From the IMG/VR virus record IMGVR_UViG_3300035145_000697, positions 1 to 43,842 of that record: a DNA stretch of 43,842 bases, one strand, 5' to 3'. This document shows, in pieces, positions 1 to 33,931 of this stretch (the first letter of the stretch is position 1; every line of letters starts with the position of its first letter). A model generated the notes under the pieces. That model saw only the letters and a list, made by a program, of their open reading frames with translations, was not told where the DNA came from and made no database searches. Source of the DNA: a virus (lineage: Duplodnaviria > Caudoviricetes). The position numbers and the translations under genes were made by a program.

Positions 1-3000
1 CTCAGACATATTGGTTCTGGTGGACTCAAGATATTTGTCGATGGTCGCGCAAGAGTCAATCCTCAGTGGGTTGCAGAGATCCAGATCGAACTCAAGGGTA
101 CTGCACACAGCAGTCTTTCCAAAGTCTTTACTGGAGAAGGAAGAATTCCTTCGTTCGTTGGAAAAGACGAGCGCAGAACATTTGCATACGAAGGCGAAGG
201 TCAACTATTTGGTCTTGGCGGTCTTGTCGAAAGCGTCAGCTTCAATCCAGACGAGAAGCAGATGCTCTTCTCCTTCTTTGGAGACGCAGGCGAATCGTTC
301 GTACCAAACTGGAATGGTACTGCTCGTGCAGAAATCTTTGGTACTGCAGAACCAGTCCTCAGAACATTTGGTTATCAGACAGAAGGAAGTCTGTTTGCAG
401 TCAGTGGCAGCGCAGAAAGAAGAACCTATCATTACAACGATTCTTCTATCAACTTCTATCAGAAGAGAGACTATCAAGGTCTTCCTGCTTCTGGTCAGAT
501 TACCAACATCGCAACCAGTCAAGTTCTTACTGGAACTGCTCCAACTTCAATCATTCAGATTGGATCTCCTGGAGCAGGTGTTGTTGCAACAGTTCAAAAT
601 ACATTCTCCATCAATCCTACTATTGGTTCTGTTGTTACAAGCAGTGTCGATTGTGGATTTATCACAAGCGAGAACAACGAAAGAACTGTCAGAGAAGACT
701 ACGGATTTACTTCCTACCCTGCTTCTCTACTCAGCAAAGTATCCGAATATCCATTCGGAAAAATCTCCAATCTTACCAGCGACTTCAGACAAGTCAAGAC
801 AAACTTCAGTCTGCTGCACATTGGTTCTGGATCTCTATTCACTCTTGTATCTACTACCAGCAGACTTGCACCAGTATACATTGGTTCTGGAAGACTGTTT
901 GGATTTGGTGGAGCAGTCGAGTCTGTTGGAGCAGTACCACCAGCAGAGACATTTACTTACAAGTTTGCTGGCACAGCAGACGAGGCATTTGCTCTCGGAT
1001 ACACTGGTCATGTCGATCTCAGAATCTCTGGTACAGCAGACGAGAGAGCAGCAACCGACACCCTCAGACAAGTCGATGTCGAAATCAGAGGTGGAGCGAA
1101 ATACAGATATGCACCAAACTGGAATGGTTCTGGTGTACTATTCTCTATCGGAGCAAGTTCCGAAGCGATTACAATCGACATTCCAGCGTTCCAGGCAGAT
1201 CTGGTATTCAAGGGAACCGCTGGAATCAGATCCACTATCGTCGAGTCCTTTACTGTACATACCAAACTATCTGGTATTGCAGTCGAGAGACAGACAGACA
1301 ACTATGTCGGTCAAGCAGATCTTCGTGTATTCAACGAGTCTGTTGTACCAATTATTACTCTGTCTCACTTTGGCGAAGGTCGCATCTTCGCACTCAGTGG
1401 AGCAGCAGAATCCTTTACTGCAAATCCAGAAGAGAAGACTGCACTATTCTCTCCAGTTGGTACAGCAGATGTACGAGTTGCTCGTGCAGAATCCTTCACT
1501 GCAAACATCAAACTATCTGGAACAACTGCACCAGAAATCCTTACATTTGCAGAGCAACCATTTGGTACAGTATCTGTATTTGGAGCAGCATCTTACAGAA
1601 TCGTCGATGTTCACCTTGGCGAAGGTACTCTATTCAGTATCGGTCAAAGTGCAGAAGCAATTACGATCAAAATCCCTGCATTCCAGGCAGATCTGGAACT
1701 CAAGGGTGCTGTTGCTCAGAGACGCACATTTGGTGGCAATATTGGATTCGGAAATCTATTTGTTTCTGGAACAACCGCACCAGAACTACTTACATTTGCA
1801 GAGCAACCAGAAGTACAAGTCGAAGTATTTGGAGTTGCAGAAACTCCAAGAGCTCGTGCTTACTCTGTCGAAGGTTCTATCTTCACAGTTGGATTCACCA
1901 ACGAAGCAATCACCAGAAAACTACCTGCATTCCAGGTAGACATTGCATTCCGTCCAGACAAAGCAGGTCTTCGTGCTGGTTACAGAGAAGTCAGTCAGGG
2001 TGGAACCATCCTGTTCTCTGGAGAAGTATCAGAACCAATCCTCACATTTGCAGAGCAACCAACAGTATTCGTCGATATCACAGGTGTTGGCGGAACAACC
2101 AGAGCTCGTGCATACGAAGCTGATGTCTTTATTGGTCACTTTGGTGGTGCTGCTGAGAGTATTACTCTCAAACTACCAGAGTTCCAGTCAGATATTGTAT
2201 TCCGTCCAGAAGCAGCTGGAATCAAGGCATCCGTTACAGAGGTTGGATTCACAACTTCTATTGTACGCGGCGAAGCAAGCGTCAAGTACATTCCAAACTG
2301 GATTGGTTCTGGTACTGTCGATCTATTTGTTTCTACAGAAACAAGTCTTACCAAGATCTACATTGGTACTGGTTCACTCAAGAAATTCTCTGGTGCGGCA
2401 GAGTCTGTCACCTTCAATCCAGAAGAAAGACAACTATTGTTCTCCTTCTCTGGTCAGAGAATTGCAGAAAAAGTTACTTTCAACCCACCAGAAGAAGGAG
2501 CACTTCTCGATTTCACTGGAGATGTATTCGAGAGATTCACACCAAACAATATTGGTACTGGTACAGTATTCACATCTGGTGTATCTACAAATTCTCTCAC
2601 CAAGATTTATATTGGCGATGGTCAACTGTTTGGTCTTGGTGGCGCAGCAGAATCTGTCACATTCAACCCAGACGAGAAAGAAGCACTCTTCGACTTTACT
2701 GGTGTTGGATTTATCAGATCTACAAGATCTTACATTGGCGATGGTTCTCTATTCGCAGTCAACGGTGCTGCAGAATCTACTGTTGTCGTACCACCAGCAG
2801 AAGGACTATTCAAATTCAGCGGTCTTGCTACAGAAAGAACATCCGCAGTCGAGACGGGCGGTGGTATTCTATTCAACTTCGTTACCAGCATCGAGCGTCG
2901 TACATTTGCACACAGCACAACAGGCGCACTTGATATTTCTGGTATCGCTGACATTGCAAGAGCAATTGATTACACTGGATTTGGTAATCTGTTTGCAGTT

Positions 3001-3615
3001 AATGGTGCTGCCGAATCTACAACAAATAGAATCACTGTTGAAGGTGACATTGCATTCAGTGGCGATGCTAAGGTTGTCTCTACCAGAAGATTTATTGGAT
3101 CTGGAACACTATTCGGATTCGACAGTGCAACTGAGTCTAGAACAATCGCTGTTTCTGCGAGAGCAATCTACGACTTTGTTGGTGCTGCTCGTCAGAGATT
3201 CACAAGAACTGTTACATCTGATATCAATCTTGAGATCTCTGGTTCCGCAGTTGAAAGATTCAGCAGAGGTGCGTGGATCACTACTGGTCAGGCTACAGTT
3301 CTTGGAGATACTCAGCACAGCTTTACTCGCACCGTATCTACATTCGGAACTGCAAGGGTACTCAACAAAGATGTTGTTCCTGTACTCACTAGAAATTACT
3401 TCACTACTGATGGGAACATCGATGTTAATGTTCTCACAACATATAAGAGAATTATCAAATACTTCGGTCATACAAACATCGAAGTTGATATTTCTACTAA
3501 GTATGTTGCTCCATTCCAGTTCTACACAGGTAGCACCGACGCAATTGTATTTGGTGAATCGAGAATCAAGTTTGTCCAGGTAACACCTCCAAGATCTTAT
3601 GGATGGATTATCTAA
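1..3615 (+). CDS. Very large repetitive virion structural / fibre-like protein, C-terminal part (5'-truncated by the window)
   Basis: Frame 1 is open from nt 1 (LRHIGSGGLKIF...) through the tracked ORF 262..3615, so ATG 262 is internal. Recurrent motifs: (Y/H)IGxGxLFxxxGAAES, PNWNG, LTFAEQP, IPAFQAD, FNPxE. Lies upstream of tail-fibre-type genes. Confidence 0.75.
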   Translation, partial: LRHIGSGGLKIFVDGRARVNPQWVAEIQIELKGTAHSSLSKVFTGEGRIPSFVGKDERRTFAYEGEGQLFGLGGLVESVSFNPDEKQMLFSFFGDAGESFVPNWNGTARAEIFGTAEPVLRTFGYQTEGSLFAVSGSAERRTYHYNDSSINFYQKRDYQGLPASGQITNIATSQVLTGTAPTSIIQIGSPGAGVVATVQNTFSINPTIGSVVTSSVDCGFITSENNERTVREDYGFTSYPASLLSKVSEYPFGKISNLTSDFRQVKTNFSLLHIGSGSLFTLVSTTSRLAPVYIGSGRLFGFGGAVESVGAVPPAETFTYKFAGTADEAFALGYTGHVDLRISGTADERAATDTLRQVDVEIRGGAKYRYAPNWNGSGVLFSIGASSEAITIDIPAFQADLVFKGTAGIRSTIVESFTVHTKLSGIAVERQTDNYVGQADLRVFNESVVPIITLSHFGEGRIFALSGAAESFTANPEEKTALFSPVGTADVRVARAESFTANIKLSGTTAPEILTFAEQPFGTVSVFGAASYRIVDVHLGEGTLFSIGQSAEAITIKIPAFQADLELKGAVAQRRTFGGNIGFGNLFVSGTTAPELLTFAEQPEVQVEVFGVAETPRARAYSVEGSIFTVGFTNEAITRKLPAFQVDIAFRPDKAGLRAGYREVSQGGTILFSGEVSEPILTFAEQPTVFVDITGVGGTTRARAYEADVFIGHFGGAAESITLKLPEFQSDIVFRPEAAGIKASVTEVGFTTSIVRGEASVKYIPNWIGSGTVDLFVSTETSLTKIYIGTGSLKKFSGAAESVTFNPEERQLLFSFSGQRIAEKVTFNPPEEGALLDFTGDVFERFTPNNIGTGTVFTSGVSTNSLTKIYIGDGQLFGLGGAAESVTFNPDEKEALFDFTGVGFIRSTRSYIGDGSLFAVNGAAESTVVVPPAEGLFKFSGLATERTSAVETGGGILFNFVTSIERRTFAHSTTGALDISGIADIARAIDYTGFGNLFAVNGAAESTTNRITVEGDIAFSGDAKVVSTRRFIGSGTLFGFDSATESRTIAVSARAIYDFVGAARQRFTRTVTSDINLEISGSAVERFSRGAWITTGQATVLGDTQHSFTRTVSTFGTARVLNKDVVPVLTRNYFTTDGNIDVNVLTTYKRIIKYFGHTNIEVDISTKYVAPFQFYTGSTDAIVFGESRIKFVQVTPPRSYGWII
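1186..2062 (+). repeat. Internal nucleotide-level repeats of the giant gene
   Basis: acatttgcagagcaacca occurs near 1543, 1792 and 2044; ttccaggcagatctgg near 1189 and 1681. These encode the TFAEQP and FQADL repeats. Confidence 0.8.
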
Positions 3616-3618
3616 TCC

Positions 3619-3626
3619 TATAAATA
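3619..3626 (+). promoter_or_regulatory. T4-type late promoter TATAAATA
   Basis: Exact gp55 consensus in the intergenic gap, 23 nt before ATG 3650. Confidence 0.85.
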
Positions 3627-3649: not shown

Positions 3650-4111
3650 ATGACAACTCAGGTTCAATTTAGAAGGGGTACTACAGCCGAACACGCACTG
3701 TTTACTGGTGCTGAAGGTGAGCTTACAATTGATACCGATAAGAATATGGCCGTCATTCATGACGGTAGTACGACTGGCGGTTTTGATGTTTTTAGAGCTA
3801 GATGGGAACTAATTAATTCTAGTCAAGTTCTTGGAACCTCACTCAGATATCTTGTAGACTCCTCAAGCGGTCCCCTAACACTTACGCTCCCTCTCTATAA
3901 TAATCAACTTGTTCCAAAAGCAGGTGATGTTATAGAGTTTATCGACGTAAAGTTCACATGGGATATAAATAATATTACTATTGTGGACCCTATCGGCAGA
4001 CAGTTTCAAAATACTTTTGGAGTAGTTGATTCTCCTCTAGTTTTTGATCTGAAAGGCGCAAGTGTTCAGTTAATATGGGAAGGCAGTTACTGGAGGGTAA
4101 TCGTATCATGA
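3650..4111 (+). CDS. Tail-fibre-associated protein (Mtd/hyaluronidase-type N-terminal motif plus a DSSSGPLTLTLP domain)
   Basis: N-terminal QFRRGTTAEH...GELTIDTD...HDG motif typical of phage fibre N-termini. C-terminal half resembles ORF 8731..9054. Confidence 0.65.
   Translation: MTTQVQFRRGTTAEHALFTGAEGELTIDTDKNMAVIHDGSTTGGFDVFRARWELINSSQVLGTSLRYLVDSSSGPLTLTLPLYNNQLVPKAGDVIEFIDVKFTWDINNITIVDPIGRQFQNTFGVVDSPLVFDLKGASVQLIWEGSYWRVIVS
3964..3971 (+). promoter_or_regulatory. Intragenic late promoter TATAAATA
   Basis: Exact consensus about 140 nt upstream of the next gene (4108). Confidence 0.5.
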
Positions 4112-4530: not shown

Positions 4531-7500
4531 ATGGCAGATTTTAGACTTGGAAGACTAAAATTTAACTGGCGCGGTGATTGGGCGGCTGATACTGCCTATG
4601 TCATCGACGACATTGTTAAATTTGGTGCTAACACTTATGTCGCGACCGCGAACCATACTTCGGTCTCCACGGCGGCACAATGGTACTCCACTGATGTAAG
4701 CAACTGGTCGTTGCACACAGAGGGTATCTACAATACTGGTGACTGGGCGACAGCCACTTTCTATAGATTGAACGATATTGCCAAGTATGGTAATGTTCTC
4801 TATAGATGTACTGTTCCTCACACCGCTGGAGCTAACTTTGATCCTGCAAAGTTTGCTGATTATCTTGATGGTCTAAAGTTTGAAGATACTTGGGACGCAA
4901 GCACTGAATATCAAAAAGGTGATATTGTAACTTACGGTGGTTACTCTTACATCTGCTTATCGACAGTAACTGGTATTCAACCCAATAATGGTCTTGGCAC
5001 CACTTGGGAAATCCTAACAACTGGTTTCAAGGTTGTTGGTAACTGGGATGCAACTACAACATACAAGCCTGGTGATGTTGTCCTTCTAGGTGGTAACTCG
5101 TATGTTGCAAAAACTACTAATGTAAACTCTTCTCCTGCTGCTTCTGGTCAGACTGATTGGGACTTCATTGTTGGTGGTTTCACATGGAGAGGAACTTGGG
5201 ATGCAAGCACAGTTTACTTCCCAGGTGACGCAGTTTCTAGAAACAGCAACTCCTATATTTGTATTGCTCAATCTCAAGGTAATACACCAGAAACTGACAC
5301 CATTGGTCAATATTGGAACTCTCTAGCACAAGGTGCTCAGGCGAATGTTCTAACCACTGCTGGTGATATTCTTTATCAATCTGGATCTGGTCCTGCAAGA
5401 CTGCCTATTGGTAATGACGGTACAGTCTTAACAGTTGACTCTGATACTGGATATCCTACTTGGAAAAAGAATCAGGTAACTCAAAAAGTTTATTATGTTA
5501 CCCAAGAGGGTAGCGACAGCAACACTGGTGAGAACATCACAGAAGCATTCGCAACTCTTCGTCACGCTGTTGACAGCGTAAGTGGTCCTGCAACAATCTA
5601 TGTTAAGGCAGGTACTTACAATGAGATCCTTCCAATGCGTGTTCCTGAGGAAGTATCCATTGTTGGTGATAACCTAAGAACCACTCGTATCACACCTAGA
5701 GACGGTGAACCTTCTACAACGATTGAACTCGATCTTGCACAGGTTCCTGATAATCAGTATAAAGTTCTTGGTTCTACCGTAAACTCTGGTGACGGTTCAA
5801 AAACTGGTGAAGTTATTGATGTTAAGGATGGTGGTTCTACTATCGTTCTTAAGATTCAAGGATTCGCTGGTCATAGAAACGGTGATGCATACAACCTACT
5901 CAAAGCAAATACATCTTTCCTTGTAAAGGAAACACTTGCTAAGGCATCTGCTGGTGGTATTACTCTTTCATATCCACCTGGATCTGATCAAACTCAGTTT
6001 GAAAATGACCTAACTCTAATAGTTCAGGACATTTACACTAATGTTGGTTATGGTGGTAACGATCTAATTTATGACAGAATTGATACTCAACTAACTGGCA
6101 ACTACTGGAATGGTGGTGAAGCTGAAGTTGTTTCGATTCTTGGTTACATGAACCAGATCGCATATGACATCATCAACAATGTTCCTGTCACTGTAACTGG
6201 ATCTCATGGTATTACACAGGTAATTGATAACACAATTACTAACGATCCTAGTGGTTGTGCTGCAATCGAAGCAGCAATCGCTGCATTGATCCAAGTAGTT
6301 ACCGATGGTCTTACTGCTGGTAACCTCAGTGGCGTAACTAGAACTGCTAACAGCAGTCTCTGGACAACTTCTGACACCTATGAAGCTGGTGCAACTGACA
6401 TTGCTATCAATGGTGTTAACATTGTTAATAACGAGCACGCAACAATGTTCTTGCTCGGTAACAAGACAATGTTGAAGGATCTTGTTATGGATGGAATGAG
6501 CGGTTTCGTTCCTTCCACTAGTGATCCTAAGGACATGAACACCGCAACTGTTAAGGGTGTTTATGTAAGACTTGATCCTAATTCACCAATTACCAAGTCT
6601 CCTTATGTTTCTCAGTGTTCCTCCTTCGGTGGTACTGCAACTGGTGCAATTATCGATGGTGATGTTCACTCTAAGTGGGACGGTACTGCAACTCCTTCTA
6701 ACAAGTCAATCGTGTTTGACTCATGGACTCAAATCTATGAGGAAGGTGGTGTCGGTTTCTGGGTAACAAATAACGGTGCATCTGAAATCGTTTCTTGCTT
6801 CACCTACTACGCACACATCTCTTACACTGCTACTAGAGGCGGTAGAATTAGATCTCTCGCAGGTAACTCTTCCTGGGGTACATACGCTATCGTTTCTTCT
6901 GGTTTCAACCAGAACGAAGCAACACTTCAAGGAGAAATTGATGGTCTCCAATTACAGTATGATGTGGCAACTCTTGTCAACGGTCCTGGTGGAGACACCA
7001 TCTGGTCTAATGATGAGAGAATCATCGGTCTAACATCTGGAGCAATTGGTGAGATTGTTTCTGTTCAGGCAGGTGTTTATAAAATCCTTTACAGACCACT
7101 TAAAGGAACTTTCGTACAAGGTGAAGTTATCAGTGGTCAAACAACTAATGTTTCAGCAAACCTAGAAAATAACACAGATGCAGTTGGTGGACAAAACGGA
7201 TTCGTTCTTGTTCTAACTGGTTTATCTGCAGCACCTAAGCCTGGTGGTTCGATTGAATTCATCACTGGTCCTGGTGGACTTGGTGAAGAACCATTCACCT
7301 TTGTTGTTTCTAACTCCTCTTACACCGCACCTGTAGGTTATGGTACTCTGACAGTTGCTAGAGGACTACTTGGTTCTGCAGCTGCAACTCATGATGGTTT
7401 GGAAAATATCACCAGATATCAGTATGGTGATCCAACCACATTGAGTGCTGCAATTAACAATGCTACTGAAACTACAATCTTTGTTTCTTCTATTAGTGGA

Positions 7501-8310
7501 TTCTCCATCGGTGCATTCTGCGTTGTAGAAGATGAGATGATGAGCATCACCTCCTTCCCAACTGCAACTTCTATGGAAGTTGTTCGTGGAGTTGAAGGAA
7601 CAAATGCTGCTCCTCACAACTCTGGTTTAACAGTTCGTTCCATCGAAATCAAAGTCGTTGATCAGACAGATACTCGTAGAGATCTTGATGCTTCTCAGCA
7701 AGACATCAGAGTTACTGATGCTTCTGGTTTCAACATCAGTGACTTTATCAAGATTGATAACGAATTCATGCAGGTCAGTAACGCTCAGACAGATACCACT
7801 GGTACTGTTCTGGTTGTTCTTGCTGCTGAAAAACCAACCAGAACATATGATGGTCAGGGATATAAGATTAGATATTCCTACTCTCAGGTGCGTCTAACTG
7901 GTCATGACTTCCTGAACATCGGTAGTGGAACTAAGACACAAGTTAACTGGCCAGGTGAACCACTCGTACCACCTGCTCCAGGTAACGAAGTTACTGAAGA
8001 CTTCCCAGGTCGCGTATTCTTTGTTTCTACTGACCAAGACGGCAACTTCACTGTTGGTCGTTACTTCAGAGTTAACCAGGCAACTGGTAGCACAACCCTG
8101 AACGCTTCTTCCTTCGACCTATCTGGTCTATCGTCCTTGAGACTGGGTTCCATTGGTGCTCAACTTGGTGAAAGTATCACAGAATTCTCTTCTGATGTTA
8201 CTCTCTCCGCTAACAGCAACCAAAAGGTCCCAACTCAGCGTGCTGTTAAGACATATGTTGATAGCACTAGAACGACCAAGGGATATGTGTTCTGGGCAGG
8301 ATCGATTTGA
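4531..8310 (+). CDS. Large virion structural / tail-fibre protein with N-terminal CBM5/12-like repeats and a pectin-lyase-like region
   Basis: About five repeats W-x5-Y-xx-(G/D/N)D-x-V-x-(Y/F)G-x-xY in the first ~260 aa. YYVTQEGSDSNTG...AFATLRHA...IYVKAGTYNE motif typical of beta-helix N-caps. C-terminal SANSNQKVPTQRAVKTYVD. AAGGA RBS. Confidence 0.75.
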   Translation: MADFRLGRLKFNWRGDWAADTAYVIDDIVKFGANTYVATANHTSVSTAAQWYSTDVSNWSLHTEGIYNTGDWATATFYRLNDIAKYGNVLYRCTVPHTAGANFDPAKFADYLDGLKFEDTWDASTEYQKGDIVTYGGYSYICLSTVTGIQPNNGLGTTWEILTTGFKVVGNWDATTTYKPGDVVLLGGNSYVAKTTNVNSSPAASGQTDWDFIVGGFTWRGTWDASTVYFPGDAVSRNSNSYICIAQSQGNTPETDTIGQYWNSLAQGAQANVLTTAGDILYQSGSGPARLPIGNDGTVLTVDSDTGYPTWKKNQVTQKVYYVTQEGSDSNTGENITEAFATLRHAVDSVSGPATIYVKAGTYNEILPMRVPEEVSIVGDNLRTTRITPRDGEPSTTIELDLAQVPDNQYKVLGSTVNSGDGSKTGEVIDVKDGGSTIVLKIQGFAGHRNGDAYNLLKANTSFLVKETLAKASAGGITLSYPPGSDQTQFENDLTLIVQDIYTNVGYGGNDLIYDRIDTQLTGNYWNGGEAEVVSILGYMNQIAYDIINNVPVTVTGSHGITQVIDNTITNDPSGCAAIEAAIAALIQVVTDGLTAGNLSGVTRTANSSLWTTSDTYEAGATDIAINGVNIVNNEHATMFLLGNKTMLKDLVMDGMSGFVPSTSDPKDMNTATVKGVYVRLDPNSPITKSPYVSQCSSFGGTATGAIIDGDVHSKWDGTATPSNKSIVFDSWTQIYEEGGVGFWVTNNGASEIVSCFTYYAHISYTATRGGRIRSLAGNSSWGTYAIVSSGFNQNEATLQGEIDGLQLQYDVATLVNGPGGDTIWSNDERIIGLTSGAIGEIVSVQAGVYKILYRPLKGTFVQGEVISGQTTNVSANLENNTDAVGGQNGFVLVLTGLSAAPKPGGSIEFITGPGGLGEEPFTFVVSNSSYTAPVGYGTLTVARGLLGSAAATHDGLENITRYQYGDPTTLSAAINNATETTIFVSSISGFSIGAFCVVEDEMMSITSFPTATSMEVVRGVEGTNAAPHNSGLTVRSIEIKVVDQTDTRRDLDASQQDIRVTDASGFNISDFIKIDNEFMQVSNAQTDTTGTVLVVLAAEKPTRTYDGQGYKIRYSYSQVRLTGHDFLNIGSGTKTQVNWPGEPLVPPAPGNEVTEDFPGRVFFVSTDQDGNFTVGRYFRVNQATGSTTLNASSFDLSGLSSLRLGSIGAQLGESITEFSSDVTLSANSNQKVPTQRAVKTYVDSTRTTKGYVFWAGSI

Positions 8311-9078: not shown

Positions 9079-10005
9079 ATGTCAAGTTTAAGAGATCTTC
9101 TAGATGTGCCATCACTGGATAACTTACCCGTCCAGACGTATTTGGGTCCAGGAGCACATCAGTATCTATTCAGAGGAAACCACTGTTGGGAGTATGGTTC
9201 GAGTCATAACTATGACTGGAACAGATACAGATGGTGTGTTCCTAATGAATGTATTTGTCGCATCAAATGGGAAATTTGGGGCGGCGGTGGCGGCGGTTCA
9301 GGTACATGCTGCTGCTCTATTGCATGGTCTGGACACTCGGGACAGTATATGTCTTGCACACTATGTGCTGCAGACATGGGTGTCTCTCAATTGGATGGTT
9401 GCTGCTACGATATTTGTGTAGCATCTGGCACCTGTCGTCACCCATCTAGAGGTGGTTTTGACGGATGTAAGTCGTATATCAGTGGTCCTGGTCTAAGTGA
9501 CTTCTGTGCTTGTGGTGGATGTCACGGATTCAACTGCTGTCACTGGGTTGATTCTTACTTCTCTTGTAGAACAAGAAAGAATGAAATCGGTCCTGCATGT
9601 AACAGATGGCAGACTGAACACTATCCTGCTAATGATGGTGAAGCCTATAGAGGGTGTGAACAAAAAGGTAAGTTCTTCTGGGGTAACCTAGATTCCTATA
9701 TTCACTATGACTGCAACCCAGGTTGTGGTAACTGGTGTCATAAGAAAGACTATCACCCAGTTGCTCCTATGTTCGGTGCTAGATATGGTATTCACCATGT
9801 TCTGCGTCGTCCAGAGATGCACTCCTGTGGTAGAAGAGCTACATTGTGGTTGACTGGTAATAACGGTGGTTACTCCAGTTCCTGCCATAGAAACGGTCCT
9901 CCTGGTTCTGGTGGTGTTTCTGCTCAGGTATATGGTGGCGGTTGCTGCTGTTCTTCTGAGGGTGCTCACGGACTCGTTAGAGTCACACTTTTCTGCAAAT
10001 CTTAA
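9079..10005 (+). CDS. Gly/Cys-rich putative fibre-tip/adhesin protein, paralog 1
   Basis: EIWGGGGGGSGTCCCS core, about 31 Cys in 308 aa, C-terminal G-x-VRVT strand typical of glycine-rich fibre domains. Confidence 0.65.
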   Translation: MSSLRDLLDVPSLDNLPVQTYLGPGAHQYLFRGNHCWEYGSSHNYDWNRYRWCVPNECICRIKWEIWGGGGGGSGTCCCSIAWSGHSGQYMSCTLCAADMGVSQLDGCCYDICVASGTCRHPSRGGFDGCKSYISGPGLSDFCACGGCHGFNCCHWVDSYFSCRTRKNEIGPACNRWQTEHYPANDGEAYRGCEQKGKFFWGNLDSYIHYDCNPGCGNWCHKKDYHPVAPMFGARYGIHHVLRRPEMHSCGRRATLWLTGNNGGYSSSCHRNGPPGSGGVSAQVYGGGCCCSSEGAHGLVRVTLFCKS

Positions 10006-10017
10006 TCACGGGGAGTA

Positions 10018-10971
10018 ATGGCAAATCTTAGAAGTTTAATTGGTCGAGAGTACGCAAGCACACTGGATAACACCATTGGTGAAGTCGGTGCTCTCGACAT
10101 GAATAACGAAGGAAGAGTGTTCCTCTTCCGTGGTTATTGTGGTGACGGTAACTGCAATAGCAACTACTGGGAGTATTGTTTGCAGCACTGGTGCGTTCCT
10201 TGTGGTACTACTCAAGTAACTTTCGAGTTATGGGGTGGTGGCGGATCTGGTGGTGGCGGTTGCTGCTGTCAGCAAGGTTTCCCTGGTGGTGCTGGATCTT
10301 ATGTAAGAAAGACTCTGCAATATCCACTAGTACAAGGTGGTTGGTGCTACTCACTTTGCACAGCGCCTCCTACATGCTGCTCACGCTGCTGTTGTGGTAT
10401 TCAGGGTTGTAAGACCTGGGTCCAAGGTTGTAACCTAAGCAACCTTTGTGCAGACGGTGGTCTTCCTGGTAAGACTTGCTGTTATGCATTCTGGAGCAAT
10501 GAGTTTAGATGTAAGGACAAAGTTTCCTTTGATGGTTGTGGTGGATGGAGTCTACATAACTGCTGTGCTTGTGCATACGGTGGAGACTTTATGGCGGGTG
10601 GTAAACCTAGCTGGTTTAGAACTTCCAACTCTTCCAGTAACTGTTGGGCAAAAGCAGGATTCGCAATTCCTTACGGTCTAGTTGCTAACGGTCCAACTTA
10701 TCAGACTGTTAACTATTCTGGTGATGCATGTCACCATGAATACATGATGTGTCGTGGTACTACACCATACGCATTCAATGTTCATTGTGGTGGTAGATCT
10801 GGTATCCCTGGTAAGGGTGGTCCTTCTGCAACTTCTTGTGGTGGCGGTTGCTGCTACGGTAGAGGTGGTGCATCTGGAATGATCAAAATCACATATTGCT
10901 CTTGCTGGATTCACGGTTCTGACCGTAGATCTGATGGCAACCAAGCATGTTCCTGTTTCTTCTACAACTGA
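10018..10971 (+). CDS. Gly/Cys-rich putative fibre-tip/adhesin protein, paralog 2
   Basis: ELWGGGGSGGGGCCCQ, CADGG and GMIKITY motifs; about 36 Cys in 317 aa. Confidence 0.65.
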   Translation: MANLRSLIGREYASTLDNTIGEVGALDMNNEGRVFLFRGYCGDGNCNSNYWEYCLQHWCVPCGTTQVTFELWGGGGSGGGGCCCQQGFPGGAGSYVRKTLQYPLVQGGWCYSLCTAPPTCCSRCCCGIQGCKTWVQGCNLSNLCADGGLPGKTCCYAFWSNEFRCKDKVSFDGCGGWSLHNCCACAYGGDFMAGGKPSWFRTSNSSSNCWAKAGFAIPYGLVANGPTYQTVNYSGDACHHEYMMCRGTTPYAFNVHCGGRSGIPGKGGPSATSCGGGCCYGRGGASGMIKITYCSCWIHGSDRRSDGNQACSCFFYN

Positions 10972-10977
10972 TAAATA
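10970..10977 (+). promoter_or_regulatory. Late promoter GATAAATA
   Basis: NATAAATA followed by a GGAGG RBS before ATG 10998. Confidence 0.65.
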
Positions 10978-10997
10978 CTGGAGGATAATAAAGTACA

Positions 10998-11888
10998 ATG
11001 TCAAACCTTAGAGACCTACTCGGTATTGTATCAGAAGACACCCTAAAGGCAGGGGCGGCACCTGATGATGTAACAAAGATCGCAAGACTTCCATCCGAAG
11101 GATATTGTGTGCAATACATCACTGCATATTGTGGTGCTACATGTCAAGAGTATAATACAAATTACTACTACATGCAGTACCCCAACTGGTGTGCTCCTGA
11201 TGGTGTCTGTGACATCATCTTTGAGATCTGGGGCGGCGGTGGCGGCGGCGGTTCTTCCTGCTGCTGTTCACGAGGCGTTCCCGCTGGATCTGGTGCATAC
11301 GCATACAAGCGTCTAGTCGGTAGTCAATATGCTGGTTGCGCTTATCAGATTGAGGTTGGAGAACCTGGATGTGGTAGAATGGGATGGCAGTGTGGAGATC
11401 CTGGAAACTATACATCGATTACTGGTCCTGGTTTGACTAACTTCTGTGCAGACGGTGGTCCTGCAGGATGCTCTTGCTGCTTCCTCTGCTGCTGTACTGC
11501 TCACTACATCAGTCTATCTAACTGTCCTTATGGTTGCTGTGCTTGCTACTACGGTGCAGACGGCGGTTCTAGAGGAGTCCCTGGATACACATACATGTGG
11601 TGTTATAACAATCACTGCTGGAACAAGCAGATGATTGCTTACCCAGGCGGTCTAGTCAACGGTAAAGGCGGTTGGTTGCCTGGTAACCAATGCGAAGATA
11701 GTGGATGTGGTTATTGCCTAATGCATTGGGCAGTAGACCAGCTACACTGGGGCGGTGGACATAGTGAAACTAACTATGTACCTGGCGTCGGTGGTGCTTC
11801 TGGTTGGACTTGTGGTGGTTGCTGCCATGGTCAGAACGGTAATCCAGGTATGGTTCGCATTAGTTACAAGTACGACGAGAACTTGTAA
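10998..11888 (+). CDS. Gly/Cys-rich putative fibre-tip/adhesin protein, paralog 3
   Basis: EIWGGGGGGGSSCCCS, CADGG and GMVRISY motifs; about 30 Cys in 296 aa. Confidence 0.65.
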   Translation: MSNLRDLLGIVSEDTLKAGAAPDDVTKIARLPSEGYCVQYITAYCGATCQEYNTNYYYMQYPNWCAPDGVCDIIFEIWGGGGGGGSSCCCSRGVPAGSGAYAYKRLVGSQYAGCAYQIEVGEPGCGRMGWQCGDPGNYTSITGPGLTNFCADGGPAGCSCCFLCCCTAHYISLSNCPYGCCACYYGADGGSRGVPGYTYMWCYNNHCWNKQMIAYPGGLVNGKGGWLPGNQCEDSGCGYCLMHWAVDQLHWGGGHSETNYVPGVGGASGWTCGGCCHGQNGNPGMVRISYKYDENL

Positions 11889-14038: not shown

Positions 14039-15733
14039 ATGATTATTCTTGCAGTTGCTCGTGGTCATAATGGCAGCACGACACTCATGGTTGATGGTGA
14101 GATTGTTTTTTACTTAGAAGAAGAACGCCTATCTCGCTTCAAATATGATGGTGCCCCTTTGATGGGTATGCTCAAAGCATTTGAGTATGTTGACCATATT
14201 GATCACCTAGTTGTATGTCACACCCACCGTGACGGTCCTCAGCTTGATTGGACAGGTGAGGACATGTATGAGGGTCTAATTCGTAAGATCGCTCGTAAGC
14301 GTTTTGAATTTAAGACGCATTTCATCGATACTACACACCACGAAATGCACGCTGCATGTGGTTTCTATAACTCTGGTTTTGAAACTGCTGCATGTGTCAT
14401 TGCTGATGGTGCTGGTAGTTTCCTCAGGATGGAAGCAGTTCCTGATACTCTGTATGAGTTTGAGACTATTTTCCAAGCATCATATCCTGATGACTTTGAT
14501 ACAGTCTGGAAGCACATCGGAACCAAAGCTGCTATTGGATTCCATGAACCAGAACCTAATCACTATGTGACTGAGTATCCTGGTCATACTAAGATGTATG
14601 AAGCAGTAACTCAATACTGTGGGTTCCCTGCTATTGAAGCAGGTAAACTTATGGGTCTTGCTCCATACGGTAAACCAAATGACGAACTGCCTTCCTTCTT
14701 TAAGGATGGTTGGGGTAACCGTGACTTGATTGTTCCTACATATCCAAATGCTGCAGCAATCAATGTTGAGCGTTTCCCTATCCTCAAGCAAGATTCCCGT
14801 GAGCATATTCGTGGAGAAGCAATCCCACAATATACTGACATTCAGAAAGACATCGCATATAAGATTCAGGAAGAAACTTCCGATCGTATGTGTGACTTGA
14901 TCGAGAAAGCAGTTGAAATCACTGGTGAGAAAAACATTGTTGTGTGTGGTGGATATGGTCTGAACTGTGTTGCCAACTACAAGTATTGGCAGCGTTTCCC
15001 TGACCTGAATATCTATTGCGAACCTATCTCTCATGATGGTGGTACATCTATTGGTGGCGCAAAGTATATCTACCATCAGGTAACTGAGAACGAGAAACCA
15101 GAACCACAAGCATCTGTTTACTATGGTCCTCAGTATGATGTTGATACATACGAATCTGATCTAGCAGGTCTTGATGTTACTGATGCATCCTATGAGTCTG
15201 TAGCACAATTGATTCGTGATGGTAATATCGTCACCATTTATCAAGGTCGCTCTGAGGGTGGTCCTCGTGCTCTTGGTAACCGTTCTATCTTGTTTGATCC
15301 TACGATTCAAGATGGCAAAGATCATGTCAATGCAGTCAAGCGTCGTGAATGGTTCCGTCCTTTCGCTTGCTCTATCAAGAAAGACAAAGTACATGATTGG
15401 TTTGATCTAGCAGGTCGCGAAGAGACACCTCATATGATGTATGCAGTCAAGTGTCATGATGGTGTGGAAGAGAAGATTCCTTCTGTCATCCATGTTGACA
15501 ACACTTGTAGAATCCAGACCGTTACACCAGAGCAGAATGAACACTACTACAATCTCATTGATGCATTCGATAAGATTGCGGATGTCCCTATTTTGTTTAA
15601 CACTTCTTTTAATTTGGGTGGAGACCCGCTGGTCGAGACAATCTCAGATGCAATCGACACTCTGAGTCGTAGTCAGATCGAGTATATGTATCTTCCTGAA
15701 ATTCAGAAGTTGGTGAAAGTTCCTAATGAGTGA
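14039..15733 (+). CDS. Carbamoyltransferase, NodU/CmcH family (copy 1)
   Basis: EEERLSRFK, HHEMHAACGFY, DGAG, GKLMGLAPYG, GGYGLNCVAN, EGGPRALGNRSIL, KRREWFRPFA, HVDNTCRIQT, NTSFNLGGDP motifs. Confidence 0.93.
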   Translation: MIILAVARGHNGSTTLMVDGEIVFYLEEERLSRFKYDGAPLMGMLKAFEYVDHIDHLVVCHTHRDGPQLDWTGEDMYEGLIRKIARKRFEFKTHFIDTTHHEMHAACGFYNSGFETAACVIADGAGSFLRMEAVPDTLYEFETIFQASYPDDFDTVWKHIGTKAAIGFHEPEPNHYVTEYPGHTKMYEAVTQYCGFPAIEAGKLMGLAPYGKPNDELPSFFKDGWGNRDLIVPTYPNAAAINVERFPILKQDSREHIRGEAIPQYTDIQKDIAYKIQEETSDRMCDLIEKAVEITGEKNIVVCGGYGLNCVANYKYWQRFPDLNIYCEPISHDGGTSIGGAKYIYHQVTENEKPEPQASVYYGPQYDVDTYESDLAGLDVTDASYESVAQLIRDGNIVTIYQGRSEGGPRALGNRSILFDPTIQDGKDHVNAVKRREWFRPFACSIKKDKVHDWFDLAGREETPHMMYAVKCHDGVEEKIPSVIHVDNTCRIQTVTPEQNEHYYNLIDAFDKIADVPILFNTSFNLGGDPLVETISDAIDTLSRSQIEYMYLPEIQKLVKVPNE

Positions 15734-16369: not shown

Positions 16370-18025
16370 ATGGCGTGGATACTTGGTGTAAATCGATCTC
16401 ATGATGGTGGTATTACTTTATTGAAAGACAATAAAGTTGTTCTTTCAATCCAAGAGGAGAGACTTACTCATATCAAATATGATAATGAGTGTTTCTATTC
16501 TTTGGATAAAGTTGCAGAGTACACAAAAGTAATCGATGTCTGTGTGTATACACATCTGTATAATCGCAGAAATGATTTTGGACCATATTTTAAATATATC
16601 AAACGCAAACTTGGACTGCATGTCAAGAATTATCTTGAAGCGAAGGACTACCATCACTCCCTCCATGCAGCATGTGCATACTTTCATTCTCCTTTTGAAG
16701 ATGCAACTGTTCTAGTAATCGATGGAGCAGGTGCTGACCATGAATATGGTAAGGAGAATGAGAGTATCATTCATATTCCTGGTAGCGCAGCAAACGCAGA
16801 GTGTTTATATCAGAGTGTTGTTGGATATGTTGGTTCTAAGTTAAAGGCGGATGCACCATCATATGTTGATCCAGAACCTCGCATTGGTGCGGGATATGTT
16901 TACTCAGGTATTACAAAGTATCTTGGATGGGATGGTCTTGAGTGTGGTAAAACCATGGGACTTTCTTCATATGGAAAACCAAATCCAAAGATTAAATCTA
17001 TCCTAGATGAAGGTGGTGGCAGATACCAAGAGTTTGGACTGGCAGATTTTAACAATCACAAAGAAGTGATGGTGGTAGTCCGTCCATATGAATACATTTG
17101 TTCTGCTAGAGATGAGAAAGAAAAGTTTCAAAGAGATGCTGATCTAGCATATAAACTTCAGTCTGAGTTTGAAGATTATGTCTACATGAGAATTATGCAG
17201 GCATATCAATTATCGAATTGTCCTAATATTATTTTCACTGGTGGTTGTGCATTAAACTGTGTTGCCAATTATAGAATTAAGAAACGATTGCCACCAGAAA
17301 TTAATCTATATGTTGAACCAATTTCCAGTGATTCTGGTATTTCTCTTGGTGCTGCATATATTGGTTACAATAAAGAGATGCCAATGCGTTTTGCTAAGAA
17401 ACCATTGATGCCTATTGATAATATTTACTTTGGTCAACAACTTAAATACGAAGAAAAGTATGAGAATGAGAGACCAGCAACTCCATCTGATGTTGCAAAG
17501 TTAATTGCTGATGGAAACATTGTCGCTATGGCACAAGGTAGATCTGAAAATGGTCCCCGTGCTCTAGGAAATCGTTCCATTCTTTATGATCCTCGTGATC
17601 CTAATGGTAAAGATAAAGTAAACACTGTCAAGAAACGAGAAAATTGGAGACCATTTGCTGGCACGGTCATGCTAGAATATGCACATGAGTGGTTTGATAT
17701 GGCTGGTTTGCCAGAGTCTCCATACATGATGTATGCTATGGAAGTTCTCAGACCAGATGAAATTCCATGTATTACTCATGTAGATAATACCTGTAGGATT
17801 CAGACTCTTACAGAAAAGCAGAATCCAAACTACTATAAATTAATCAGTGAGTTTAATAATCTCACTGGGGTTCCTATTTTATTCAACACATCTTTCAATC
17901 TTGCTGGTGATACTATTGTAGAAACTATGGAAGATGCTTTCAATACTATGAATGAAAGTTTGATTGAATATCTATATCTACCTGAAGAAAACAAATTATT
18001 ATATTTCCCCAATGAAACTAACTGA
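16370..18025 (+). CDS. Carbamoyltransferase, NodU/CmcH family (copy 2)
   Basis: HDGG, QEERL, HHSLHAACA, DGAG, GKTMGLSSYG, GGCALNCVAN, ENGPRALGNRSIL, RPFA, NTSFNLAG motifs. Confidence 0.93.
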   Translation: MAWILGVNRSHDGGITLLKDNKVVLSIQEERLTHIKYDNECFYSLDKVAEYTKVIDVCVYTHLYNRRNDFGPYFKYIKRKLGLHVKNYLEAKDYHHSLHAACAYFHSPFEDATVLVIDGAGADHEYGKENESIIHIPGSAANAECLYQSVVGYVGSKLKADAPSYVDPEPRIGAGYVYSGITKYLGWDGLECGKTMGLSSYGKPNPKIKSILDEGGGRYQEFGLADFNNHKEVMVVVRPYEYICSARDEKEKFQRDADLAYKLQSEFEDYVYMRIMQAYQLSNCPNIIFTGGCALNCVANYRIKKRLPPEINLYVEPISSDSGISLGAAYIGYNKEMPMRFAKKPLMPIDNIYFGQQLKYEEKYENERPATPSDVAKLIADGNIVAMAQGRSENGPRALGNRSILYDPRDPNGKDKVNTVKKRENWRPFAGTVMLEYAHEWFDMAGLPESPYMMYAMEVLRPDEIPCITHVDNTCRIQTLTEKQNPNYYKLISEFNNLTGVPILFNTSFNLAGDTIVETMEDAFNTMNESLIEYLYLPEENKLLYFPNETN

Positions 18026-22880: not shown

Positions 22881-25800
22881 ATGGCTAAAAGGCAACTTAG
22901 AGATTATGCTTTCAAACCAGGACTATCTGGTTTAGGCACCTTAAAAGTTCTGGATAAAGTCAACGCTGATCAGATTCTTCTGATTAGTAATGCGACTGCG
23001 AATCAGATTCTTTACAACTTTAGTGATGCAACTAATCAAATTAGTGTAGCATTCCAAGCAACTACGGATGGATCTGACCCAGACTTCCCATTCGCTAACA
23101 CCTTATCGAATGGTGTTACTACGATTACTTTCTTATTCGACACATCTGCTTTCGATCTCAATGATGAGATTCAGATTTTTGTTGAAGATGAAGTTGTAAG
23201 AACTAGACCTTACGACTTTGGTACAGACGCTATTGAGAGACAGCGTGTATCAAATACTCTATCCATGCTTGACGCTGACTTCGAGTATGGTATCCAACCA
23301 ACGAAGTGGCAAACTATTGACCTCATGAGAGGTTACCCTTCTAGCTTTGAATTCCCTGGAGCAGATGTAGAAGTTAGTGCAATTGTTACCGATGCTTCCC
23401 AAGGATCTGGTGGAGTTGGTCCTTCCCTTATTACCATCGACACTCTTCTAGACCATGGATTCGCTGTTGGAGATCCTATTACACTTAAAGGTGTGGATGA
23501 TGGCGTCACTGGTTTTGCTAAGGCAGAAGGATCTTTTATTATCAGTGCTGTCCCACAACCAGATCAATTCCAATTCTACGCAAAGGGTAAAGTAGGAACC
23601 TCTCCTGCAACATCTTTGTTCTCTGGATTCATTCAACTTAGAAAAGCAGGATTCTATACAGGTGCTTCTTTAGGTTCTCCTCAATTGACAGTTGCATCTA
23701 ACGGTGCTTCTGGTCAATTTACTACTAGAGGTATTAACACCACTGGTGTCAATAGAATTGGTATTGCAGTTCCTGGATCTGCACCTCCAGCAGGTGCTCC
23801 TATTTCTGGAACAAACATTGCTGCTGGTACACAGATCACTGGTTATGTTGATACTGATACAACCATTGCGATTACAACTAGTTTCACAGCACCAGCGTCT
23901 CAGATCACATTAAACGAAACGACTGATCTGGAAGTTGGTTCTGCACTAGATGATGGTACTGGTAACGCAATTTTCGTTACCAATATCGAAGAAAATACTA
24001 TTTCTCTATCTTCTCCTTATCAAGCAGATAGAACTGGTAACAGCTTTATCTCATCTGCAACTTCCCCAACACCAGTCAACTTTGGTTTGGGTTCTGGTGC
24101 ATTTATTACTCTCGAAAGAAATGCAGGAGCATATGAGAATGTGGTAATTAACCCAACTACATTCTTCTATGAAGTAGCGGTAAGTAGCTATGCTGGTCTT
24201 GGTACTAATGCAACATTCAATATTGAAAAGAATGCTGCTACTGGACAATATACAAATGTATTTGTATCAAACATTGGTAGTGATTATTCTGCAACAGAAA
24301 CTATTGTCATCTATGGTTCTTTATTAGGTGGTGATGACACCACTCATGATATTAGCATCACAATTAACAGTGTTGATGCAAATGGTGGTATTACTGGTAT
24401 CAGTGCTACTGGTACTGCAAGCAGCAACAACCCTAATGCTGGTGCTCTCTATCAAGTAGGTGAGCGAGTTGTTATCTATGGTAACCAACTTGGTGGTATC
24501 TCTCCAGCAAATGATCTTGAGTTGATTCTTACTGGTGTTACTGCTTCTGGTGGTATTGACACATTCAAGGCTATTGGTCAAGGTATTCCTTCTAACCAAG
24601 ACTATTTGAATGTTACTGGAACCACATCTGGAACTGGTATTAACGCATCCTTCGGTGTACAAAGAACTGGTAGCGGTATCAAGACTGCTCAAGTCGATGA
24701 GATTGAAGTTGGTGGATCTGTTGAGGTCGGTGATGTATTCAATGTTGATATCACAGACACAAATTCTAGTACACTTGAGAACTTCTCTGTTACTGCTGTT
24801 GCAAATGATGGTCTTAATGAGATCAGAAACGGTCTAATTGCTGCTATCAATGATCTATCCACAGGATCTGCATATGTATTTGCTGAGGCAGGTGGTGAGG
24901 GTAAAGTAAGAATTACAGCTATTAGTCCTGGTTCTGCATTCACTGTTGCAGTTTCTACATTTGAGGGTGATGCATCTACAGCAGATTCGCAGACACTCAC
25001 ACATACCAACTTTATTCCAAACGAAAATACAACTACATCACCAACATATTCTGCAACTATTGGAAACCCAGGTTCTGGATATGCTCCTAACGATACTATC
25101 ACACTAAATGGTGGTGATCTTGGTGGTAACAATATTGAGCATGACCTAACAATCACAGTTACATCTGTTGATGCATCTGGATCTATTACTGCTTTCACTC
25201 TTGGTGGTACTGCAGCATCTGGTGATGCAACTTTCGATTCACTAACACCAACCAGCACTGCTTTCAACGCTACATTCTTCCCCAGAATTACTGGTGGTGC
25301 TTACAATCCTGACATTGATAATGCAGGTACTGGTTATCAAATTGGATATCAATTTACAATCGGTGGTGAGCAACTTGGTGGTACTTCTCCTGCCAACGAT
25401 ATGACCATTACAGTCACTGATGTTGACTTTACTAATGGTGCTATCCTTGCTGTTAGCGCAACTGGTACTCCAGTTTCTGGAGACTCTATTGCATTCTATC
25501 CATCTGTTGCTATCTCTGCTCCAACAACTGGCAATATTGCAAACGGAGCAACTATTGTTTACGCAGCAATTGCTAGAATCAGAGCTCAGTTCCCTAATAA
25601 CCACGGACTAGTTCCAGGTAATACAATTCTAACAGCGATCACATCTATTGGTACTGGACATGATCTAGCAGCAGGACCATTCTTTGTCGAAGAAGTTCCT
25701 GCACCAGATGAGTTTATATACACAGTTAGATCTACAGGAACTGTTTCCACATCTCCTACTCTTGCTGGATCCATCTATGCAAGACCAGATTGCTTCTACA

Positions 25801-32549: not shown

Positions 32550-32782
32550 AAAAGAAAACCGAGGAAGAGCGGAAGAAAGAAGTAGAACGGATCGCTAAAC
32601 ACATTCATCCACATGATGATGAACCAGATCCTACTGCTCACATGGGAAACTACAACTTTCCCCAGATGCTTTTCGCTTTCTGTCTAGGTTTCTGTACTAT
32701 GTTTGTCTTGGCAGTAGATGAAATAAATGATTTCAAGGGATGTCCACTCCCAGAATATTTCCAAAATGAGGTAAAAGGATGA
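32546..32782 (+). CDS. Small hypothetical membrane protein
   Basis: Charged N-terminus, HIHPHDDEPDP, one TM segment; coupled to gnd. Confidence 0.7.
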   Translation: MKKKTEEERKKEVERIAKHIHPHDDEPDPTAHMGNYNFPQMLFAFCLGFCTMFVLAVDEINDFKGCPLPEYFQNEVKG

Positions 32783-33813
32783 AAGTAGGTATCATTGGTC
32801 TCGGAAGAATGGGCGAGGGCATGTCTCGTCGCATGATGAAGACTGGTATTGAGACAGTAGGTTATCGTAGAAATTATGAAAAAGCAAAGCAGGCAGCAGA
32901 AAGTGGGTATATTACTTCAGCTGCAGATACTTTGGAAAGCCTTGTTCAAGTAGTTAAAACTACAGACTCAGGCAAATATCAACCTGGCATCTTCATGATG
33001 GTGGTGCCAGCAGAAACAGTAGAGGATACAATCAATGAGCTACTATCTTTTTGTAGTGAAGGAGATATTATTATTGATCATGGCAATAGTAATTTTAAGG
33101 ATACCCGCCGCAGGGCACAACGCTTGGAAAAACTGGGCATCCAGTATCTTGACTGCGGCACTAGTGGTGGTGTTTACGGCTTGGACCGTGGATACTGTCT
33201 TATGGTTGGTGGTGCAAATACTGCAGTATCCGTCTGCGCTCCTATCTTTAGGGCACTCGCACCAGGAGTTGCCGCTGCCGAACGTACCGATCCTCTAAGT
33301 CATTTCACATCAGCAGAGCACGGTTGGTTACACTGTGGACCAGCAGGTGCAGGTCACTTTACAAAGATGGTCCATAACGGCATCGAGTATGGTATTATGC
33401 AAGCATATGCCGAAGGATTTAATATTCTACACGAAGGAAATGCGGGTGCGAAATATGTCAAGGAAGGAGATGCTGAGGTTGCTCCAATGGACAACCCAGA
33501 AGATTATTGCTATGACATTGATGTTGCTGAAGTGGCTGAGCTTTGGCGTCGTGGTAGCGTTGTTGGCAGTTGGTTACTTGACCTTACCGCTGATGTACTA
33601 CGCCGCGATAACGAGCTTAGCGGATACGATGGGGGAGTATCAGACAGTGGTGAAGGTCGTTGGACTGTCCACGCTGCTGTGGATCTCGGTGTTCCAGCCC
33701 CTGTTATTTCTTCTGCTCTATACTCCAGATTCGAGTCGCGACGACTCGGACGCTTCGCAAATAAAGTCCTAAATGGTATGAGAGCGATGTTCGGAGGACA
33801 TGATGTTAGGTGA
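32779..33813 (+). CDS. gnd: 6-phosphogluconate dehydrogenase (short form)
   Basis: GIIGLGRMG, DHGNS, DCGTSGG, GAGHFTKMVHNGIEYG, DSGEGRW, MRAMFGGH motifs. Confidence 0.96.
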   Translation: MKVGIIGLGRMGEGMSRRMMKTGIETVGYRRNYEKAKQAAESGYITSAADTLESLVQVVKTTDSGKYQPGIFMMVVPAETVEDTINELLSFCSEGDIIIDHGNSNFKDTRRRAQRLEKLGIQYLDCGTSGGVYGLDRGYCLMVGGANTAVSVCAPIFRALAPGVAAAERTDPLSHFTSAEHGWLHCGPAGAGHFTKMVHNGIEYGIMQAYAEGFNILHEGNAGAKYVKEGDAEVAPMDNPEDYCYDIDVAEVAELWRRGSVVGSWLLDLTADVLRRDNELSGYDGGVSDSGEGRWTVHAAVDLGVPAPVISSALYSRFESRRLGRFANKVLNGMRAMFGGHDVR

Positions 33814-33931
33814 ATTCATTCTATGGCTTGCACCGATCTTTGTATGTTCCACCATCGCATTTGGAAGATATAAAGGCGAAAATAACTATTATGACTCGGA
33901 CGACTACACAGGAAATGGAACCGCTCACTAG
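33803..33931 (+). CDS. ndhP: NDH-1 small subunit NdhP homolog (42 aa; not in the ORF track)
   Basis: MLGEFILWLAPIFVCSTIAFGRYKGENNYYDSDDYTGNGTAH*: one TM helix plus a tail matching the cyanobacterial NdhP C-terminus (recalled as FYDTDQYHGNGSAH). GGAGG RBS at 33793. Confidence 0.82.
   Translation: MLGEFILWLAPIFVCSTIAFGRYKGENNYYDSDDYTGNGTAH

Follow-up and report, generated by a model that had tools for sequence, protein, structure and literature searches.

Long alternative frames kept free of stop codons by synonymous choice have been described in the ambigrammatic narnaviruses (Retallack 2021, PMC8316113; Dudas 2021, PMC8155312). According to the parts of both reports available to us, the open frame lies on the reverse strand of an RNA virus, is translated and required, and polymorphism argues against a functional protein being made from it. 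Abrahams and Hurst (2018, PMC5909447), in the accessible portion of their article, treat the ambush hypothesis, an excess of out-of-frame stops being typical of AT-rich genomes and slip prevention of GC-rich ones. For the PE_PGRS genes of M. tuberculosis, the available part of one study attributes the depletion of off-frame stops largely to a passive effect of GC (PMC13328622), and in the bypassing of T4 gene 60, as far as the excerpt at hand describes it, ribosomes leave frame 0 (PMC5009743).

Off-frame stops are usually viewed as neutral or protective. The phage gene family described here shows the reverse under ongoing selection. The constraint is real, conserved and currently selected, and it acts at the level of translation; for its mechanism we make a proposal.

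The repeat-protein gene and its surroundings

The window, that is the whole stretch of 43,842 nucleotides analysed, comes from a T4-like marine cyanophage and comprises its structural region, with PHROG matches to tail, neck, terminase, portal and gnd/zwf-type dehydrogenases. It begins at about codon 891 of a repeat-protein gene of PHROG 11522, whose 3' 1,204 codons occupy 1..3615 of the + strand (profile match E 1.7e-199), the 5' end being outside the window. Membership in this PHROG follows from the profile match and from synteny, as the gene lies upstream of phrog_9648 and phrog_9851. Judged from relatives at 97-99% identity, the complete gene has about 2,095 codons, and one full-length ortholog (L004) is 98% identical. 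The preliminary description called it a giant virion gene; it is not the largest of its genome, and a place of the protein in the virion is suggested by genomic location and gene context. In the phage collection, PHROG 11522 has 11 records only, each from S-CAM1 or S-CAM3, and the orthologs in these phages (SXBG_00232 and gp164, respectively) hold the same position, directly upstream of the genes for an Mtd_N-domain tail protein and a tail fibre. In the window, the Mtd_N protein was identified by its domain match at 3650..4111 (+), and the tail fibre gene, which has normal off-frame stop counts, comes next at 4531-8310 (+). Three nt past the stop of the purged gene we found TATAAATA (3619..3626, +), which we take to be a T4-type late promoter consensus, and an ATAAATA core is present 3' of the gene stop in 45 representatives. 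A separate late promoter for the next gene is likely.

Beta-type repeats, about 41 and 83 residues in length, make up the protein, and its N-terminal half also shows super-repeats of about 250 residues. Three TFAEQP repeats are encoded at 1543-1560, 1792-1809 and 2044-2061 (+), all within 1543..2061 and at a spacing of 83-84 codons. The C-terminus, PPRSYGWII (3586..3612, +), agrees with the P...[IV][IV] ending of family members and may serve in docking; the family counts 338 representatives at E<=0.001, the longest of 3,800 aa, the genes of relatives ranging over 1,150-3,800 codons, and among the full-length ones listed most end in P...II. No Pfam family matched the window part of the protein, a PDB sequence search gave no match and hence no solved relative, AlphaFold gave no usable model (pLDDT 28 and 31), and an Atlas search returned only unnamed matches, all below 0.9. 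Over the family's last 800 codons, Tyr, Trp and Cys are depleted 2-5-fold relative to the N-terminal half, a scarcity that could come from structure or from avoidance of near-stop codons. One ortholog (L021:5759-12514) carries a Reelin subrepeat-like insert at residues 180-285, in its N-terminal half (PF21471, above cut-off).

Other genes of the window were also observed. Three tandem phrog_4205 paralogs of about 300 aa each, preceded by two tail-like genes of about 106 aa, lie at 9079-11888, and these paralogs and tail-like genes are possible partners of the repeat protein. Two Nol-like carbamoyltransferase genes (14039-15733 and 16370-18025) stand on either side of a gene matching phrog_274 and 2OG-Fe(II) oxygenase, and two dehydrogenase genes are found at 32779-35246, where S-CAM1 has gnd and zwf.

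Off-frame stops in the window and in the family

Positions 1-1936 of the + strand contain no TAA, TAG or TGA in any frame, a triple-open tract (1..1936) that reaches 2,061 nt in full-length close relatives. Before 2931 only three stop triplets occur: a lone interior +1-frame stop, TAG 1937 (frame 2; 1937..1939, +), at codon -560 from the gene end, and two isolated -1-frame stops, TGA 2121 and TGA 2154 (frame 3; 2121..2156, +), at codons -499 and -488. A second triple-open tract of 774 nt follows (2157..2930, +), and the next frame-2 stop is TAA 3581, the +1 frame being open over 1940..3583 (+) to 32 nt before the gene stop. The 3' part of the gene (2931..3612, +), with 22 -1-frame stops vs 24.9 expected, provides an internal control. 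Every coordinate that the preliminary description stated holds, and its claim of strand specificity also holds: the minus strand of 1-2930, which would be the open one in an ambigrammatic gene, has 149 stop triplets. Neither TGG, TAT and TAC nor the minus strand is depleted, so this is not a shortage of TA or TG, a point the preliminary description had already made.

To build a null, the sequence was shuffled 2000 times with amino acids and the region's own codon usage preserved. Off-frame stops number 0+0 in 1-1935 vs 17.4+46.2 in shuffles (minimum 9+31), and 1+2 in 1-2928 vs 26.5+68.5 (minimum 17+51), that is, 3 vs 95 in total, which excludes an artefact of composition or codon usage. Triple-open stretches of about 2 kb are not routine under shuffling either, the longest run being 354 nt vs 1936 observed. 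The avoidance operates, as proposed, through synonymous choice at codon junctions, since a codon ending in T stands before GA, AA or AG in 2/191 cases and before GG in 77/97. Control genes behave normally against their shuffles (47+148 vs 41+136 for 4531-8307; 52+184 vs 59+171 for 22881-27914). Avoidance of near-stop codons in frame is weak and mixed (TAT 0.60 vs 0.70, TCA lower), and a TTA deficit disappeared in a small stricter gene set; near-stop avoidance is not counted as support.

The purge is shared by orthologs. In 25 hand-picked representatives, counted over fixed windows, +1 stops in the last 800 codons are 46 vs 570 expected, and -1 stops in two windows are 169 vs 635 and 206 vs 626 (ratios 0.27 and 0.33); between these two windows they are 224 vs 282, in the last 70 codons 189 vs 178, and upstream of codon -1,200 the ratios are 0.89 and 0.94. 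Another 78 metagenome loci have the same layout. Queries from remote subfamilies gave 165 loci, 132 of them with a complete 3' end and 60 after dereplication, some of which re-find marine clades; of these 60 genes, 52 have a +1 ratio below 0.5, 25 have such a low ratio in the -1 frame, and 28 contain triple-open runs of at least 600 nt. Locus searches with P0013, P0044 and P0063 found no loci. The purge is small or absent in several AT-rich members and L139, and its near-loss in some lineages (L139, L159) indicates that it is not essential. Its strength follows flanking GC (rho -0.68 and -0.76 over the 60 genes, with kinship ignored), being weaker in AT-rich lineages.

Within genomes the trait is specific. 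In S-CAM1, SXBG_00232, the gene of this family, contains the two longest triple-open runs (1,684 and 1,473 nt), and elsewhere runs do not exceed 223 nt; the 47 other + strand ORFs of at least 333 codons have off-frame ratios of 0.70-1.18, the +1 frame of psbD excepted. This psbD (L060 38257-39312) has 4 +1-frame stops vs 11 expected, which are small numbers. Around the family genes, in 101 neighbour genes of at least 600 aa, ratios do not fall below 0.72 and triple-open runs do not exceed 177 nt. Neither gene length nor a very long mRNA, which had been suggested as a cause, accounts for the purge, given that S-CAM1 genes of 3,693, 3,032 and 2,706 codons have normal off-frame stops.

Selection on the absence of stops is ongoing. 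In the window and seven close relatives, synonymous sites that bear C and would create a -1 stop as T vary in 0/90 cases vs 52/125 for other sites, and the same comparison in the unpurged tail gives 10/21 vs 8/30. For twelve other strain pairs the two values are 0.06-0.10 vs 0.30-0.34 inside the blocks, and 0.31 vs 0.30 over the N-terminal half. Together with the shuffles and the orthologs, these data bear out the earlier proposal that selection acts on lack of termination.

Some features were missed by the preliminary description, namely that the +1 and -1 frames differ, that the blocks are all-or-none and sharply bounded on their 3' side, and that slip sites are avoided, as treated below. 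The +1 frame is open through the last ~800 codons. In the -1 frame, the open blocks are all-or-none, and most of them end in one of two zones. Over 45 genes, -1 gaps of >=150 hold 61% of codons vs 17% under random placement (maximum 21% in 1000), and between blocks the -1 stops are spaced as in the N-terminal half (median 6 codons). The 5' starts of the blocks are variable and their 3' ends clustered: of 113 long -1 blocks, a count that pools two slightly overlapping gene sets, 44 end within 83 codons of the gene end and 49 at -382..-550 (93 together), 14 at -159..-310 and 6 further upstream. For the main clade of 34 genes, the share of -1 stop opportunities taken up is 6/341 at -129..-70, 25/30 at -68 and 26/26 at -66; evidence for positive selection of these last stops is suggestive only, as Ile/Val codons before GA end in T at 62-81% by context. 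Going upstream, stop use climbs steadily from 1/204 to 67/201. The median terminal open run is 416 codons in the +1 frame vs 144 in the -1 frame (92 genes). The position of the putative exit differs by frame, the -1 frame closing from about -70 and the +1 from about -40, and by clade (-229 in the window, -21 in S-CAM1). Lone +1 stops lie at -391 to -560, in the same zone as the interior -1 block ends, and the three interior stops of the window (-560, -499 and -488) fall within this putative interior exit zone; TGA 2121 and 2154 are also present in L063, whose best ortholog match is L004, at 52% identity.

TFAEQP repeats mark block ends in marine clades, and the CAA-CCA codons of the motif are at background usage. 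A role of the motif as a required signal or a Pro-arrest peptide is not supported, since the purge is present in subfamilies that lack it, and triple-open runs of at least 600 nt occur in 13/40 genes without TFAEQP.

Slip sites and the explanations of the purge

The junctions A-AAG, T-TTC, TTT-C and CTT-T are prone to slips in -1 and +1 shifting. Gene-wide in 45 representatives, A-AAG occurs at 0.12 of expected and the same 4-mer read as AAA-G at 1.05; T-TTC is at 0.12, TTT-C at 0.07, and CTT-T at 0.30 vs 1.01 for CTT-C. In neighbour genes the same four avoided motifs are at 0.56, 0.48, 0.27 and 0.84. The avoidance of slippery A-AAG, T-TTY and TTT-Y depends on the reading frame and both +1 and -1 slip sites are purged, which suggests that slips are unwanted; the sole recurrent A-AAR is Arg-Lys AGA-AAR, itself favoured by stop avoidance. 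In the orthologs we found neither a conserved slippery heptamer or slippery site at the 5' edge of an open frame, nor a conserved SD+ATG or internal late promoter, and sparse windows (90 nt every 180 nt, 8 genes) gave no block-specific RNA folding. Frame 0 is continuous and conserved, with no non-coding gap and stop after a take-off codon.

A possible explanation, which we favour tentatively and at a little less than an even chance, is that accidental slips are minimised and that ribosomes which do slip remain mRNA-bound as far as an exit zone, since chains released early would be harmful. Ongoing selection holds the 3' ~800-1,250 codons free of off-frame stops, and the whole gene avoids tRNA slip sites. 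An accidentally slipped ribosome would then stay on the mRNA to the last ~70 codons or to roughly -390 to -560, and a chain released outside these zones would do harm. Off-frame ribosomes would arise from errors; as slip sites are purged and no recoding signal was found, accidental shifting is a simpler source than programmed shifting. An early-released N-terminal fragment, devoid of the C-terminal motif, may still co-assemble and poison the tail structure, and a long scrambled tail may render the chain harmless, either by near-native length (as a ruler or scaffold) or by marking it for proteolysis or exclusion. If the cost of a stop grows in proportion to the length of the open run preceding it, one would expect all-or-none blocks that are sharp at the 3' end and variable at the 5' end, and also the longer purge observed in the stop-poor +1 frame. 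A cost of slips that do not reach an exit would also explain why lone +1 stops fall in the exit zone and why the purge weakens in AT-rich lineages, where the GC dependence would be that of weak selection opposing AT-biased mutation. This model was fitted after the pattern was known, and some facts speak against it: other tail proteins facing the same expected risk show no purge, some block ends lie at -159..-310 or further upstream, and exits vary by frame and clade. Among the four functions suggested earlier, avoiding the release of truncated subunits fits best. Slipping and regaining frame, and programmed multi-frame decoding, are disfavoured because slip sites are purged, no conserved shift signal was found and long compensated frameshift pairs are absent from relatives. 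Reinitiation at an internal Met is also unlikely, since the window block has the strongest purge and 1 ATG in 976 codons.

A sharp conserved edge is also expected from a programmed event, and it is mainly these edges that lend some probability to sliding, multi-step shifting and pausing with queues. Ribosomes could slide or hop over a module of ~250-300 codons, or shift stepwise, in a new type of programmed recoding that yields shorter or mosaic isoforms; they would resume or stop at the 3' edge of a block, and the absence of stops would meanwhile block release factors. The edge at -68/-66 would suit such an event, as would the many -1 runs of 240-310 codons, near the ~250-codon super-repeat, and the one -1 stop kept at -512/-511 in seven S-CAM1-like genes amid ~1,000 purged codons. 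We nevertheless hold it unlikely: slip sites are purged, none of the conserved signals mentioned above was found in the orthologs, nor a distinctive fold in the sparse windows of 8 genes, the TFAEQP codons are at background and motif-less genes have long runs, and the -68/-66 stops are only modestly over their context baselines. Moreover, sliding requires equally open frames, yet in L014 the +1 frame is purged where the -1 frame is dense (1 vs 24 and 27 vs 28 stops, respectively). An undescribed long-range recoding over ~250-300 codons that uses no classical signal and yields length or mosaic isoforms of a tail scaffold, or a ruler for which C-terminal length counts in any frame, is rather unlikely. 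A pause at fixed points, nascent-peptide or assembly-coupled, could instead make ribosomes queue; queued ribosomes being prone to slip, the upstream region would be cleared of slip sites and of stops at which tethered chains would be released. The purge does fade upstream of the sharp edge, and the main-clade edge lies 2 codons past the Pro of TFAEQP, but the edge remains at -68 where QP is lost (L016, L017, L024), the purge is present where the motif is absent, slip-site avoidance is gene-wide, and any advantage of a junk extension over release is left unexplained, which makes a pause improbable.

Translation of the other frames might be the function in itself, extra ribosome cover protecting the RNA or delivering ribosomes. 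Open frames free of protein constraint recall the reverse ORFs of narnaviruses as presented in the available parts of those reports (PMC8155312, PMC8316113), but here the frames share the strand of the translated gene, so the RNA is already covered by in-frame ribosomes; neither frame has a conserved start and a separate late promoter likely serves the next gene, so we judge this quite improbable. That open frames let indel or recombination variants of the gene survive and diversify would agree with its direct repeats, and the accessible part of the PE_PGRS study makes a similar proposal (PMC13328622). Against such tolerance at the DNA level, which seems very improbable, alternative-frame segments gave 0 matches to the main frames of orthologs, no frame-switching between orthologs was found, and between relatives no out-of-phase stretch exceeds 50 nt. 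The run data are contigs only, silent on RNA ends and levels; in the contigs of 4 runs, which drop rare variants, the sole indels, at 3292/3298, form a pair separated by 6 nt that lies outside the blocks. Genuine overlapping proteins in the +1 frame, the -1 frame or both are extremely improbable and largely refuted, although nested ORFs of 686-1,067 codons that start with ATG exist. In 12 pairs, fourfold sites of the last 800 codons are as diverged as those upstream (e.g. 0.263 vs 0.272, 0.285 vs 0.286), so synonymous sites evolve freely; no conserved start with a ribosome-binding site was found in the +1 frame of 45 genes, and no Pfam family above its cut-off in three alternative-frame products.

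A few observations concern individual records. The indel pair at 3292-3298 is a compensated +1/-1 pair in contigs of runs X15 and X16. Contig joints have short sides (20-43 letters among the 15 of 20 listed), consistent with repeats of related phages. Three frameshifted database records (P0031, P0140, L075), in which the protein continues into an alternative frame and P0031 ends in an S-CAM1-type -1-frame peptide, were set aside as probable assembly errors; their frameshifts are probably indels of assembly, and the continuations owe their length to the open frames alone.

Relation to known systems

Our search of the literature on off-frame stops found no description of this trait, and that on S-CAM1/S-CAM3-type phages described neither the trait nor the structure of this protein, most subscription journals and supplements being outside both searches. 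A stop purge with slip-site removal is apparently previously undescribed. The family offers a natural test case of when a truncated frameshift product is worse than a long scrambled one, and, as cultured S-CAM1 and S-CAM3 carry the gene, silent substitutions can separate the variables. Programmed recoding, if true, would constitute a new class of recoding. Nested ORFs of 650-1,070 codons in these genes are not to be annotated as genes.

In programmed frameshifting, of which dnaX and lambda G-GT are cases, an open alternative frame follows the shift. Unlike these cases and T4 gene 60, as far as the source consulted on the latter goes, the phage gene gave neither a shift site nor a take-off stop, no gap in its coding sequence and, in the sparse windows folded, no stimulator; its frame 0 is continuous and the two other frames are open. 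The suppressed synonymous divergence of a same-strand overlapping gene, the conserved slippery site of a frameshift cassette and the non-coding gap of gene 60 bypassing were looked for and not found. Like the PE_PGRS genes, it is a repeat-protein gene poor in out-of-frame stops; unlike them, to judge from the available part of that study, its depletion persists under a codon-usage-preserving null (3 vs 95).

The closest systems in their working, on the available parts of the reports, are the ambigrammatic narnaviruses, as the phage gene is likewise stop-free in the absence of constraint at the protein level. It differs from them in having two open frames on the same strand, as part of one dsDNA gene, with a normal minus strand and slip avoidance. 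The ambush work, in its accessible portion, deals with the same quantity, uses the same synonymous-shuffle null and has frameshift error as the selective force (PMC5909447). Set beside that portion of it, the phage gene represents an ambush of opposite sign, where at 42% GC slips are prevented and stops are removed (PMC5909447).
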